DNA of 64,000 nt. Source: a virus. Taxonomy: Duplodnaviria; Heunggongvirae; Uroviricota; Caudoviricetes. The DNA is taken from IMG/VR virus record IMGVR_UViG_2563366947_000002; one strand, written 5' to 3'. Below, in pieces: positions 18,071 to 60,536 of this stretch. A program made the translations under genes and the position numbers. The notes under the pieces are model-generated. The model was not told the DNA's origin. It made no database searches and saw only the letters and a list, made by a program, of their open reading frames with translations. How positions within the stretch are numbered: position 1 is the stretch's first letter; each line of letters starts with the position of its first letter.

Positions 18071-18085
18071 TTTTCTAACACAAAT
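18071..18085. promoter_or_regulatory. C1-type operator-like motif (TTTTCTAACACAAAT)
   Basis: Member of a nine-site motif family; lies in the divergent promoter region between the capsid gene and 18096. Confidence 0.4.
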
Positions 18086-18095
18086 CATTAGAGTT

Positions 18096-18488
18096 ATGGC
18101 GTATCGAATCTTTGTTTCGTATAAAAATGGCGCTAAGAGCCACTCTCTGAACACAACAAGTCGCTTTCTTGTTGAGGCGCAGTTGGCATCAATTCTTGCC
18201 GAAAGTGAGATACTCTCGCTCGCTGAACGGATCGTTATCCAGTTTTCTGGTAGAGATATACTCAATGCCCCCGCCCTCACTCCGGCCTCCGAAGTTATGG
18301 AATCAATTAAATGGCCTGTATGCGGATGTCCTGCCAGGGTTGAAGAGCCGGTAACAGCAACGCTCTACATGCCGAAAGCAGTAAGAGATTGGCTTGCTAT
18401 GGTTGGTAATGGGAAAGTCAGTGCTGGACTTCGCAAGTTAATTGAAATGGCAGATATTCCTGAGTTAAAAAATGCATGGCGACAATGA
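18096..18488 (+). CDS. hypothetical protein
   Basis: 130-aa ORF downstream of an operator-like motif. Confidence 0.4.
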   Translation: MAYRIFVSYKNGAKSHSLNTTSRFLVEAQLASILAESEILSLAERIVIQFSGRDILNAPALTPASEVMESIKWPVCGCPARVEEPVTATLYMPKAVRDWLAMVGNGKVSAGLRKLIEMADIPELKNAWRQ

Positions 18489-18504
18489 GTAAACAAGGGA
18501 CAAA

Positions 18505-18963
18505 ATGAGTCACGTTAACCCATCAAAAACACAATATCGCTTAATGCTGGCGATCGCGTCAGCTATACCAACCAGCCTGAATCCCCCGGCAGGCTATCCC
18601 GCTGTTGTTGATGATTGTTTTCAGTATTACGGAGAAGACATCCTGAGCCAGTCAAAAGCGCTCAAGCAGTTATGTAAGGCAGGTATTCTTCACTGTATCG
18701 GAGATCCGGACGATTTTGTTGTTATGCTGGCGGATCGTGACTCTTTTCTACTGTCCTGGAAAGCTGGTGCGCGCGAAGCACGTTTGGGGAATGGTATTGG
18801 TTACATAGACTATAGCGATTGTCCGCTGGCATTTGCTGGTGGATATATGCATTGGCATGAGCGAAATAGGGGCCGTCAGCGTCAGTATCGTTTGAGTGAC
18901 TTTAACGTCTGTCACGGTTTCGAAGAAGCTGACAGCCAGGACATCTGGCTTCAGGAGCCTTGA
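18505..18963 (+). CDS. hypothetical protein
   Basis: 152-aa ORF, 17 nt after the previous gene. Confidence 0.4.
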   Translation: MSHVNPSKTQYRLMLAIASAIPTSLNPPAGYPAVVDDCFQYYGEDILSQSKALKQLCKAGILHCIGDPDDFVVMLADRDSFLLSWKAGAREARLGNGIGYIDYSDCPLAFAGGYMHWHERNRGRQRQYRLSDFNVCHGFEEADSQDIWLQEP

Positions 18964-57164: not shown

Positions 57165-58673
57165 TTATATATCCAGATCCGGCATTTCGATATCCGCCAG
57201 AACCTGATCTCGGAAAGTTGCCATTTCGGCACCAATATCTTCATTAGCAGGCACATAGTCCACCAGCATAGTGAAGCAGTAGGTATCCCATCGGTCAGGC
57301 GATTTGATGTTTAGCTTTTGCCGCATGTGCTCTTTGCGCATCATCGCCATTTTCCCTTCTTCATTCAGTAAAAAGGGGATTTTTGACGCTTGCTCTGCCG
57401 TTTTAGGGTCACTGTCTATCCGCATACGCCCTGACTTTATGGCATCACGCGCCATAATATTTGCGTAGGCACGCTGATTAACAAATCGCTCCCTGTCTTT
57501 GTTCGCAAACATGGGTTTTCCCCACCGAATACGTACCGGGTTCGCACCACGACGCACCAACTGCGCACACGTATCAGAACCAAAACCATCAGCATCAACC
57601 GCGATTGTTATATTCGGGTATTTTTCCGGCGTACATTCGTTATATATGAAGTCAGCAAAGGCCAATGGGTCCATAGTGCCAGGCATCTCCATTACCTTAA
57701 AGTTAACAACGCGCCGCTTATCCCTGTGACCTGATACCTTGCAGATGTTGAGGACCGACTTATCTCGCCCATTACCAACGTCAGCCGTTGCCACCCATCC
57801 CCAGTTTTTCTCCAACAACACCTTGCGGCGAGCAGCGCGATCGCATTCATCACGACCAAGCAAATAGCCGTTAATTTCTCGTGGGAACTGACCAAGCACC
57901 TTGACCATGTACTCAATAGAATCGCGCCCGCCATATTCCAGAAGCTTCTGCTTGATGAATTGTGGTGTGACGAACGGTGATTCTTCCGAGTTAAGAACAA
58001 TTGCTGTCCAGATCCCTTTCGGGTTGTCTGGGGTTTTTGCTTGAGAATGGTGCGAATCGTAGAAATAACCACTTGGCCTTGTTGGCTGGGATAGCATCAA
58101 CATCCGGTTATCTTCTTCAGTAAGAGCACCGGTCATTACGCCGATCGCCTTATCAGATATACCAGATGCTTCATCCAGAATTAGAAGCAAATGTGCCGCG
58201 TGTTCCCCCGCCAGCGCTTCTTCGTTGCCGAGTCGATAACCTTTGCAGAGAACTTCCCAAATCCCCTTACGGGAGCGCTCATAAAACATGGTGTCAGAGA
58301 GGACAAAATAGGTCTGCAACCACCCATGACGCTTAACTGCATTCGCCCAATACTGTTTAACGTATTTGAATACGCCTGTTTTTACCTGGCCTATCTTGTT
58401 AGCAACAATGATGACACGGGCATCGGGGAACAGGATCATGAAAATCAACAGCAACATCGCGGTAAGGGACGACTTCCCCGTTCCGTGTCCGGACGTGACG
58501 GTCGTCCTACTCCCCGTTTCCTGCACGGACTGAATGATCTGCTGCTGCTGGTGGGAGGGGAACATCCCAAAAATATCGACAACAGCTTGGGTAAAGTTGT
58601 AGCGGTATTTGATTACCATATCGCGCCAGCGTGGATCGCTGGTGACGCATTTAATCTTGCGCCCTCCAGCCAT
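57165..58673 (-). CDS. pacB: terminase large subunit (PacB-like)
   Basis: Walker A TSGHGTGKSS and Walker B LLLILDEAS; 502 aa. Confidence 0.8.
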   Translation of the reverse strand: MAGGRKIKCVTSDPRWRDMVIKYRYNFTQAVVDIFGMFPSHQQQQIIQSVQETGSRTTVTSGHGTGKSSLTAMLLLIFMILFPDARVIIVANKIGQVKTGVFKYVKQYWANAVKRHGWLQTYFVLSDTMFYERSRKGIWEVLCKGYRLGNEEALAGEHAAHLLLILDEASGISDKAIGVMTGALTEEDNRMLMLSQPTRPSGYFYDSHHSQAKTPDNPKGIWTAIVLNSEESPFVTPQFIKQKLLEYGGRDSIEYMVKVLGQFPREINGYLLGRDECDRAARRKVLLEKNWGWVATADVGNGRDKSVLNICKVSGHRDKRRVVNFKVMEMPGTMDPLAFADFIYNECTPEKYPNITIAVDADGFGSDTCAQLVRRGANPVRIRWGKPMFANKDRERFVNQRAYANIMARDAIKSGRMRIDSDPKTAEQASKIPFLLNEEGKMAMMRKEHMRQKLNIKSPDRWDTYCFTMLVDYVPANEDIGAEMATFRDQVLADIEMPDLDI

Positions 58674-60037
58674 TAATCATCCTCCGGCGGTTCTATCGCG
58701 ATATCATCATCTCCGGCGTCATACCCTGCATCAGATGCATCATAATCACCGTAAATTTCAGCAGTTGCCGAAGGGTCAATATCCAGCTCTTCGTCGTTGG
58801 CCTCGAATTCTCCTGCTTTACGCTCGCCATTGCGGTCGTAATCTCCGCACCCCAATTCTTCAACAATGGTTGCCACATCCGCCCGGCGCTCTGCCAGCCA
58901 TTGCGGATGGTTAGCCTGAAGCGTTGCAAACTCCCTTGCCTCTTTGTCCAGCTGTTCATCATCAACATCATTGACGTCAGAAACAGGTGGTTCGAGAAGA
59001 GTGATAGCTTTCGCCGCGCGCGCCGCGAGGATAGCCGGGACGCTGACACCCTGGCGCTCGATGTATTCAGCAACACCGATATCATCCAGTTCCTCGCGCT
59101 CACGCATACGTATAGCGGCGGCGATAACTCTGGCTGCGCGTGCGTCAGCGCCAATGCGATATTCAATCTCTTTGCCACGCTGTTCGGCCTGTAGGCGTGC
59201 TAATTCGAGTTTTTCTCTGGCCTCAGCCTCTTTGAATGCTTGCTGGCGAGCGCTCTGACGAAGCTTTTCATCCCCCTGTCGCAGCTTTTGTTCGGACTGA
59301 TATATAGCTGCCAACCTACTGATAAAATCATTCATGTAGTAGGCCGCGTCACTGATTAGACCGAGAAGGCGCTGCCCAGGGTGCATTCCTTCTGGCTCTT
59401 TATCGCCCAAGGCGTCTATTTCCGCCTGTAGACGTTCGGCCTCCTGATCAACAATGCTTTGATACTGAAGTGCGCGCTCTTGCGCCATTTGAATTGCTAA
59501 CCGCAGGTGTTCTTCTGCGCCGTTCTTCATCATATCGCGAGCCACATTCGTAGTTGGCAATGTGGCACGCTGCACAGCACCGTCAGGGATCATTGCAGAA
59601 GATCCCTCAATTTTTGGGGCGCTTTTATCTTCTTCGGGGATCATTTTCGCCATTTTTTCGCGCAATGATCTCCTGACGGATTCTTTTATCTCATTGTTAT
59701 TATTTGAATTATTTTCATGATCCGAAGTTTTCTTTCTCGGCATACTTCGGAAAGAACCTGCGCCCTGCGAATTGTCAATTTCTGTAAATTTTGTTTTTTC
59801 TGCACCCTCTTCCAGCTTTTTTGTTGCTCTTCCCGCCCGTTTTTTTTCAGGTGATTTGGTGCTTTTTTTTGTTGTCTTTACCTGCGACCGCACCTCATTT
59901 TTTTTCATATTGAGATGCTTTCTGGCTGTATTGAAGCTAAGGCCATGCTCCTCACAGTATTCCTTTACAGTGATCCCTTTTTCTTCACGCAACGCCATAA
60001 AGCGGGCGCGGTGCTCCTCCCAATTAACCAGACTCAT
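58673..60037 (-). CDS. pacA: terminase small subunit / pac-recognition protein (PacA-like)
   Basis: 454-aa ORF coupled to pacB; N-terminal HTH-like segment; GATC cluster in its 5' third. Confidence 0.6.
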   Translation of the reverse strand: MSLVNWEEHRARFMALREEKGITVKEYCEEHGLSFNTARKHLNMKKNEVRSQVKTTKKSTKSPEKKRAGRATKKLEEGAEKTKFTEIDNSQGAGSFRSMPRKKTSDHENNSNNNNEIKESVRRSLREKMAKMIPEEDKSAPKIEGSSAMIPDGAVQRATLPTTNVARDMMKNGAEEHLRLAIQMAQERALQYQSIVDQEAERLQAEIDALGDKEPEGMHPGQRLLGLISDAAYYMNDFISRLAAIYQSEQKLRQGDEKLRQSARQQAFKEAEAREKLELARLQAEQRGKEIEYRIGADARAARVIAAAIRMREREELDDIGVAEYIERQGVSVPAILAARAAKAITLLEPPVSDVNDVDDEQLDKEAREFATLQANHPQWLAERRADVATIVEELGCGDYDRNGERKAGEFEANDEELDIDPSATAEIYGDYDASDAGYDAGDDDIAIEPPEDD

Positions 60038-60426
60038 AAAGCAACACCACGCTTTTTAACGGCGGCATTCCACAGCTTATTCGCCATGTCCACCAGCTCT
60101 CGTTGCTCTTTTCGCGCCTGTTCGACTGATTTCCTGCTACAGTTTTTAACCAGTAAACTGCCGTATTCCGGGGTTCGCCCACGCACCTTGAACTGATATC
60201 CGTTCAGGCCATGCAACCAGTATTTTCGTGGATACACACGATCATCAAGCTCACAGATTGCCCTGCTTGAACGAACAAAATGACGAATGATGTTAGTTAC
60301 ACTTACTCGTGAAACATGGAGATGAGGGTATTTTTCTTTGGCGAGAGTGGTAATTTCAGTGACTGTCAGATAGCAGTCAGCCCTGATCATGATATCCGCA
60401 ATTTCTGCGCTGCTGATTTGTTCCAT
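60034..60426 (-). CDS. lpa: late promoter activator (Lpa-like, positional)
   Basis: 130-aa ORF overlapping the pacA start, preceded by operator-like motifs, as for P1 lpa. Confidence 0.45.
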   Translation of the reverse strand: MEQISSAEIADIMIRADCYLTVTEITTLAKEKYPHLHVSRVSVTNIIRHFVRSSRAICELDDRVYPRKYWLHGLNGYQFKVRGRTPEYGSLLVKNCSRKSVEQARKEQRELVDMANKLWNAAVKKRGVAL

Positions 60427-60501
60427 TAATCCCCCGGGCAGGAAATGACCGAGGGGATGATAATGAGAATGTTAAAACTGTATAGACTGGCAAAAAGATG
60501 A

Positions 60502-60536
60502 TTGTATTAGAAAATTAATACCAAATATCTAATACT
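60502..60536. promoter_or_regulatory. pair of C1-type operator-like motifs upstream of the lpa-like gene
   Basis: GTATTAGAAAATTAATA and ATATCTAATACT. Confidence 0.4.

Follow-up and report, generated by a model that had tools for sequence, protein, structure and literature searches.

The immunity-C system of phages P1 and P7 is the closest described to the one considered here: the C1 operators of P1 are spread widely over the genome and share an asymmetric 17-bp consensus, and in the prophage state C1 blocks early and lytic transcription and controls its own gene (PMC8546580). We analysed a 64,000-nucleotide stretch of the Caudoviricetes record IMGVR_UViG_2563366947_000002 from IMG/VR (the window), which by sequence comparison is a D6-like, P1-related plasmid prophage and a distant relative of P1, and in which an earlier note had proposed a dispersed operator-like motif belonging to a C1-type repressor regulon. 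The recurrence of the motif is real and beyond chance, and we put at about 85% the probability that it serves as operator for a C1-family repressor encoded by the element itself, which would switch off early and lytic genes; a C1-family gene, P1-like targets and co-variation of the motif with C1 all support the proposed regulon. The likeness to lambda-type CI extends to a prophage master repressor that closes lytic promoters and controls its own gene, but the operators of lambdoid phages are palindromes that lie in clusters and are bound by helix-turn-helix dimers, whereas here asymmetric sites are scattered over the whole genome. P1 has made this kind of system familiar, and it is the D6-type operator sequence and the list of its sites that are new, or at least not annotated: the record of Escherichia phage D6 (MF356679) annotates the rox and cix recombination sites and no repressor-binding sites, and no description of D6-type operators was found in the literature searched, which did not include the D6 genome paper, so that an earlier description is possible.

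The window matches D6, the subgroup's sequenced type member, at 96-99% identity across most of its length; it begins at D6 position 36396, crosses the rox site (window positions 55858-55889) and ends at D6 position 8127. Every site described below is kept in D6, and more than 100 E. coli and Salmonella plasmids are close matches to the window. Gene names were taken over from the D6 GenBank record. The gene order dre-rox-c1-pacB-pacA-lpa places the dre recombinase at 54677-55705 (minus strand), lpa at 60034-60426 (minus) and, at 56100-57137 (plus), a c1 homologue of 345 amino acids, recorded as 'prophage repressor, similar to P1 gene C1', whose product is the presumed site-binding protein. A master repressor gene beside a site-specific recombinase and pac genes is also what P1 has, as are about a dozen or more asymmetric operators across a plasmid-prophage genome of ~90 kb, the presence of both monovalent and bivalent sites, and operators that embed promoter-like hexamers.

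A strong excess of the motif is evident from an unbiased word count with expectations from a third-order Markov model. The TGTTAGAAAA family ranks first after Chi in the window and is the top word overall in the complete D6 genome (10 copies against 0.29 expected), and the exact word TTTTCTAACA occurs six times in the window where 0.17 copies are expected, a count that none of 100 shuffles attained. Allowing one mismatch removes the significant enrichment of the 10-mer (13 copies where 6.1 are expected), which could be read in favour of chance recurrence in AT-rich intergenic DNA; we take it to mean that the signal sits in a longer unit and that a longer model is needed. A 23-nt matrix finds 11 strong sites of 24-31 bits (15.5-27.1 bits leave-one-out) at nine intergenic loci, with three weaker partner sites besides; the next-best window positions outside the strong set reach ~11 bits, and in 100 Markov simulations the best score was 11.5 bits on average and never exceeded 22. 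The consensus of 35 distinct sites from five related sequences is wTTArTTTTCTAACAyAww, a conserved unit of ~19-20 nt rather than the 14-17 bp given at first. The sequence TTACGGGTTCTAACATATCTTCG at 38948-38970, within an open reading frame (ORF) of the window-specific insert, has the operator core but lacks the 5' arm, stays under 8 bits and is probably not functional.

All sites in the window are intergenic, as had been claimed, and in the fully annotated D6 genome, only 10.2% of which is intergenic, 15/15 sites of at least 15 bits fall between genes (binomial p 1.3e-15), as do 11 of the 12 exact TTCTAACA words; the motif is thus commoner than background and not equally common in coding DNA. 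Applied to the part of D6 that lies outside the window, the window-trained matrix recovers sites of 30.4 and 27.6 bits upstream of pmgS/pmgR, a 32.3-bit site adjoining a second icd-antirepressor module and a weak site of 11.0 bits upstream of repL; since the strong ones lie beyond the training window, they confirm the matrix out of sample. Chance is refuted by the enrichment, the gap in matrix scores and the placement statistics, and is further contradicted by these out-of-sample sites, by the identical offset within pairs described below and by conservation in relatives whose flanking DNA has diverged, so that we give it practically no weight.

The sites were compared one by one with the C1 operators annotated as protein_bind features in the P1 record AF234172, and most have a counterpart there; scores given below for strong sites are leave-one-out bits from the 23-nt matrix. 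The proximal c1 operator TTTAGTTTTCTAACATAAAATTA (56064-56086, minus strand, 26.5 bits) ends 13 nt ahead of the c1 ATG, points toward rox and dre, and is kept in the Salmonella Typhi plasmid pK91 and in two further relatives, L011 and L012. Together with a weak distal candidate, GTTGGTTTTCTAAAATTGATGAC (55984-56006, plus strand, 5.5-7.9 bits, rank ~18 in the window), which lies 86 bp away and is convergent with it, it corresponds to P1 Oc1, annotated as Oc1a-e. Of the element that the earlier note gave as 55989-56087, the strong site at 56064 therefore stands, and TTTTCTAAAA at 55989 is weak (5.5-7.9 bits); it is probably a degenerate distal c1 operator, because the relatives with 51% and 44% C1 identity have a perfect core at the distal c1 site. 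The position equivalent to 55984 reads GGTTTTCTAAA in pK91 and carries perfect TTTTCTAACA cores in L011 and L012; the MAFFT alignment of the region upstream of c1 was partly misaligned, and positions were compared by hand.

The lpa operator ATTAATTTTCTAATACAATCATC (60497-60519, minus, 15.5 bits), which has orthologous sites ahead of lpa in L011 and L012, forms with a weak partner arm, ACCAAATATCTAATACTACCAGC (60520-60542, plus, 3.9-5.1 bits), the counterpart of Olpa. Upstream of ref (41866-42444, minus) a weak arm facing that gene, TTTGATTATCTAACGATATTGAT (42485-42507, minus; 9.7 bits, and 11.2 bits with a pseudocount-1 matrix), corresponds to Oref, and the strong arm that abuts it, ATTGATTTTCTAACACAAAACAT (42508-42530, plus, 27.0 bits), faces the early plus-strand operon from orf88 through ppp and corresponds to Oppp. 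A single site found in the matrix scan, ATTAGTTTTCTAACATTTTAAGT (41848-41870, minus), sits at the ref stop codon and at the head of an immunity-I-like leader; its counterpart is Oc4 of the c4-icd-ant operon and, by position, also Omat at the 3' end of ref. That operators ahead of ref, lpa and the ant region mirror the P1 regulon, as the earlier note had it, is thus borne out.

The correspondence extends beyond these. A divergent pair, with left arm ATGTATTTTCTAACACAAATGGT (27971-27993, minus, 20.3 bits) ending 6 nt from the ATG of hrdC/rdgC (27060-27965, minus) and right arm ATTAATTATCTAACACAAATGGG (27994-28016, plus, 20.3 bits), matches Odmt of uhr-hrdC-dmt. The single site ATTAAATTTCTAACACATCTTTT (54654-54676, minus), between the dre stop codon and orf117, heads the orf117-dut-isaA operon and is the analogue of Ossb (ssb-isaA), being placed ahead of an operon that ends in isaA; this position is kept in all relatives examined, with a site in pK91, L011 and L012 and with their own motif types in Leclercia, Citrobacter and Pantoea. 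Between ppp (44866-45588) and the pdcB-like gene (45686-46681), the arms ATCAATGTTCTAACATATTTTGA (45606-45628, minus, 16.7 bits) and TTTAGTTTTCTAACATATTATTT (45629-45651, plus, 27.1 bits), the latter facing the operon from the pdcB-like gene through pmgU, are the positional analogue of OpmgR (OpmgRa)/OpmgT, which serve the operons downstream of ppp in P1. Counterparts of OpmgR at pmgR/S and of OrepL at repL are present only in D6, outside the window, and Oban, Orlf and O26 have no counterpart in this element.

Conversely, two window sites lack a P1 counterpart. The first, TTTGGTTTTCTAACACAAATCAT (18066-18088, plus, 24.8 bits), lies between the major capsid gene (16240-17937, minus) and orf52 (18096-18488, plus), 8 nt ahead of the orf52 ATG. 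The second, ATTATTTTTATAACATAAAACTT (36072-36094, plus, 21.0 bits), lies in the intergenic region between mat and a simB-like ORF (36107-36730), 13 nt ahead of the latter, has A in place of the otherwise invariant C of TCTAAC, and is kept in D6 at 72197-72219; it is a strong site that had been overlooked. The eight intervals originally named all have the motif.

All four pairs (27971/27994, 42485/42508, 45606/45629 and 60497/60520, two of them with both arms strong) are built alike: an arm on the minus strand directly adjoins one on the plus strand, head-to-head, the 10-mer cores starting 20 bp apart and the TCTAA centres lying 21 bp apart. The inverted pairs of the earlier note are accordingly found as four pairs of fixed offset, two of which have a weak second arm, that at 42485-42507 scoring 9.7 bits and that at 60520-60542 scoring 3.9 bits. 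These weak arms at the exact pair offset are not a matter of chance, because only ~1-2 per 10,000 window positions score as high (~1e-4 for the arm at 42485); in L012 the equivalent of the 60520 arm reaches 18.7 bits at the identical offset.

In sequence, the likeness to P1 is narrower than in position. The operators extracted from AF234172 give the asymmetric consensus ATTGCTCTAATAAATTT, which has no match in the window at up to three mismatches, and the P1-type word GCTCTAAT is not enriched there (4 against 1.9 expected); the resemblance to the P1 C1 operator that the earlier note proposed holds for the TCTAA pentamer, the sole part common to both operators, and the rest differs. The conserved unit of the D6 type is longer than that of P1, and its bivalent sites are head-to-head with centres two helical turns apart, whereas P1 Obanab and Oc1ab consist of overlapping tail-to-tail arms with centres ~13 bp apart. 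The antirepressor is also of another kind, Rha-type here and not Ant1/2. These comparisons point to a P1-type operator family of different specificity, and the element is presumably heteroimmune to P1.

The strongest argument for an element-encoded reader that tracks C1 is the co-variation of the motif with C1 across relatives, which we examined in elements whose C1 is 68%, 51%, 44%, 30%, 29%, 28% and 24.5% identical to the window C1. Where C1 is 44-68% identical, TTTTCTAACA is the top non-Chi word and is kept at the c1-proximal, c1-distal, pre-lpa and post-recombinase positions. Plasmids of Leclercia and Citrobacter, whose C1 proteins are 49% identical to each other and ~29% identical to that of the window, contain no D6-type sites; their enriched words are (T)AGATTCTAAGG and AATTCTAAGG, likewise intergenic and at orthologous spots: ahead of c1, after the recombinase, ahead of rdgC, and in the gap between ref and the divergent operon. 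The motif of a Pantoea plasmid is ACAyAATTCTAAA, and a Xenorhabdus relative has a tentative aATTCTAA motif. A word-by-genome matrix with analytic expectations is diagonal, each genome being enriched solely for its own TCTAA-flank word: GCTCTAAT in P1 (15 against 1.5 expected), TTCTAACA in the D6 type, with C1 42-100% identical (12 against 2.7 in D6; none in P1), TTCTAAGG in Citrobacter (9 against 0.8) and Leclercia (4 against 0.5), and ATTCTAAA in Pantoea (4 against 0.3). Directly 3' of TCTAA stands a T in P1 operators and a C in D6-type ones, with G at this place in the Leclercia/Citrobacter type and A in the Pantoea type; these operator types track the clusters of C1 identity. Since the motif varies although the hosts are all Enterobacterales, its reader should be encoded by the element itself; a site for IHF or another host factor was rejected because the motif differs between elements in the same hosts.

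The same shift bears on the possibility that the motif is an early-promoter element for host RNA polymerase, with a -35-like TTGATT or TTAGTT and a -10-like TAACAT, and that no repressor is involved. Parts of the motif can indeed be read as hexamers: the 41848 site covers the spacer and -10 hexamer of a predicted promoter-like TTGAAA-16-TAACAT (41848-41882), the 42508 site overlaps a predicted TTGATT-16-TAATAT, the 5' arm would provide the -35-like TTGATT at both 42508 and 45629, and a further predicted reading within the motif is TTAGAA-17-TAACAT; moreover, most strong window sites point toward the downstream gene. A host-polymerase element, however, should not change from TCTAAC to TCTAAG, TCTAAA or TCTAAT among elements that share hosts. 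Orientation is also mixed, which argues against a pure promoter element: at c1 the proximal site points away from the gene, and in D6 the sites at 10317 and 21262 point against pmgS and the icd-antirepressor module. In head-to-head pairs, moreover, one of the two arms looks toward the 3' end of a gene. P1 operators embed promoter hexamers too, yet are proven repressor sites, and we consider the promoter element very unlikely.

Downstream of the 41848 operator the arrangement is that of the P1 immunity-I region, with the operator on a promoter-like site followed by C4 RNA, icd and antirepressor. This immunity-I-like module occupies 39898-41319 on the minus strand and comprises the C4 antisense RNA (41109-41196, minus; Rfam, 76.7 bits), icd (40839-41054, minus; D6 record) and the Rha-type antirepressor (39898-40839, minus; Pfam Phage_pRha). 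Directly upstream of the C4 RNA, the leader also contains a small RNA of the Hfq-binding isrK family (41241-41319, minus; Rfam, 62.5 bits).

A dispersed late-promoter box does exist in P1-type phages, and the motif could in principle be such a box, read by the Lpa activator. In P1, late promoters carry a 9-bp AAGTGACTT-type box ~4-9 nt ahead of the -10 hexamer, upstream of late operons; the window contains only one match to this pattern, so that D6-type late promoters appear to use another box. A second dispersed motif, AAATCACAA followed after ~6 nt by a -10-like hexamer, lies upstream of late operons in the window, the box starting at 1962, 9374, 18007, 31276 and 35995 (all minus strand), ahead of R, pmgB, gene 23, gene 7 and mat, and is probably the D6-type late-promoter (Lpa) box, unlike the AAGTGACTT box of P1. 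With late operons marked by this separate motif, and TCTAAC sites standing ahead of lpa itself, c1 and early genes rather than structural operons, it is extremely improbable that the TCTAAC motif is the late-promoter box.

Several observations weigh against C1 as the reader and against repression by promoter occlusion. The window C1 is very distant from P1 C1: BLASTP aligns the two over 242 amino acids at 20% identity (E 9e-8), and the match to the NCBIfam model phage_rep_C1 (NF041318) is weak (E 8.6e-6, model positions 8-245), scoring 25.5 bits against an equivalog cutoff of 500. The 395-bp spacer between dre and c1 contains no plausible Coi-like ORF upstream of c1, and BLASTP found no similarity between Lxc and D6 orf13, which occupies the lxc position, although BLASTP could miss proteins that are small and evolve fast; the P1 circuit is thus not simply copied here. 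Promoter predictions near most sites are weak and decide nothing, and several sites lie just 6-13 nt from a start codon, which suggests roadblock-type repression or unrecognised promoters instead of simple -35/-10 occlusion. Finally, the co-variation comparison covered C1 alone among the element-encoded DNA-binding proteins.

This last point leaves room for a different element-encoded regulator, such as the Rha-type antirepressor or an Xre/HigA-type protein, that binds these sites and has diverged along with the lineages while C1 binds elsewhere. Candidates are at hand in the window, namely the Rha protein with its winged-helix domain and HigA-type antitoxins, and the assignment to C1 is one that we infer, as are repression by binding and the positions of the promoters. 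Nevertheless, the experimentally defined C1 operators of P1 share the TCTAA core and stand ahead of the same genes; the strongest and best-kept sites flank c1 itself, even in the c1-recombinase remnant of pK91; and the word count reveals no second dispersed motif of comparable strength in the window that might serve as the C1 operator. We thus regard another regulator as unlikely, and C1 as the probable reader.

In pK91 (NZ_CP029871), the D6-like remnant occupies positions 14000-21100 of a conjugative multidrug-resistance plasmid, beside IS26, and carries humD, phd/doc, dut, the recombinase, and c1 with its operators, of which the c1-proximal one is intact. In the Leclercia plasmid pE1_003, a GATC-containing palindrome, AGTGATCACT, is strongly enriched (6 copies against 0.06 expected), with copies clustered upstream of c1 (9230-9440 and elsewhere); in this lineage it may represent a second element, regulatory or sensitive to methylation.

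With C1 as the reader, the plasmid-prophage state would be one in which the protein encoded at 56100-57137 sits on about a dozen asymmetric sites, single or paired head-to-head at a distance of two helical turns. From these positions, at promoters or a short way downstream of them, C1 would keep early and lytic transcription off, as in P1. Its targets would be the c1 gene, lpa with its role as activator of late genes, ref, the leader of c4-icd-antirepressor and hrdC-dmt, as well as two D6-specific units and the early ppp, pdcB/pmgU and dut-isaA operons; by analogy with P1, early, replication, antirepressor and late-activator genes would be blocked and the repressor's own gene controlled. A specificity unlike that of P1 is the reason why the element should be heteroimmune to P1.

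How C1 might recognise an asymmetric site is suggested by its predicted structure. C1 belongs to a small family, with 84 clusters at 50% identity in a set of 1.84 billion proteins; close homologues of the window C1 carry a precomputed assignment to Pfam PF27008 (Phage_P7_repressor_C1), and compared with P1 C1 the window protein has a C-terminal extension of ~60-100 amino acids. An AlphaFold2 model built from a 9-sequence alignment is of moderate quality (mean predicted local distance difference test score 80, predicted template-modelling (TM) score 0.49). A Foldseek search of the PDB with this model gives four significant matches, all of them E. coli Tus on Ter DNA (E 2.6e-7 to 8.5e-6, probability 1.00, 272-308 columns), and the next match is at E 0.067. 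The TM-scores between the model and Tus are low (0.27-0.32), perhaps owing to a differing domain arrangement. Alignment by hhalign of a 74-sequence C1 profile with a Tus profile, shallow because the Tus homologue search gave only sequences at least 81% identical, is weak (E 0.007, probability 5.5%, 87 columns; C1 86-174 with Tus 146-245), and single-sequence hhalign gives the same register (E 0.099, probability 0.6%). A Pfam scan of the window C1 returned no match to PF05472, the Tus family, searching the PDB by sequence profile yielded nothing relevant and no solved C1 structure, a BFVD search with the model gave no significant match, and our literature search found no paper naming both Tus and a C1 repressor.

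Tus and its asymmetric Ter site form the replication-terminus system of E. coli, and Tus reads that site as a monomer; monomeric reading of this kind would explain why C1 operators are asymmetric. As a lead, we judge a Tus-like fold for C1 to be somewhat better than an even prospect, and give about even odds to the more specific proposal that the C1 family consists of Tus-fold monomers reading the invariant TCTAA together with lineage-specific flanks, with a simple flank code setting immunity specificity. The role of C1 would differ from that of Tus in being transcriptional repression, not replication-fork arrest, and site orientations, judged by eye from the strand list, have no obvious polarity around the plasmid origin. 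If the proposal is true, the monomeric, asymmetric recognition long known for C1 has its basis in a fold that until now has been known solely for arresting replication forks.

Plasmid prophages of the D6-like kind are frequent in E. coli and Salmonella, and this c1 type occurs in 149 PLSDB plasmids. For these elements the operator set would define the lysogeny regulon and the immunity group and provide targets for induction, curing and engineering, and it lies beside the widely used Dre/rox recombinase. The constant TCTAA with variable flanks, taken with the Tus-like model, yields testable ideas on asymmetric-site recognition and on the origin of immunity types.

Relative to D6, the window carries several smaller indels and, at 36164-39574, a 3.4-kb replacement for ~1.4 kb of D6. 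The replacement includes a gene (37232-37861, minus strand) for a dCTP-deaminase-like protein (Pfam DCD, 1.3e-30), which adjoins ORFs of 357 and 101 amino acids that have no family match; a PADLOC scan of this insert gave zero matches, and it may be variable cargo or a defence island. Four direct repeats of GGTGTAAGATTTGCCCTCAA at 9562-9658, just upstream of a RepA-like gene (9671-10459), with one inverted copy at 10523 (minus) just downstream of it, are presumably the iterons of the plasmid origin.

Four tRNA genes, all on the minus strand, were found by ARAGORN at 61957-62032 (Met/Ile-like, CAT), 63018-63104 (Ser, TGA), 63570-63645 (Thr, TGT) and 63648-63723 (Asn, GTT). Rfam independently recovers three of the four on the same strand, the Ser tRNA not being among them, and the D6 GenBank record has three of these tRNAs, placed on the plus strand, and leaves out the CAT tRNA. 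Chi sites (GCTGGTGG) are in strong excess across the window, with 38 copies where ~5 are expected (plus strand 15, minus strand 23; for example at 7719, 18835 and 56165), and D6 as well as the Leclercia, Citrobacter and Pantoea relatives show a like excess.

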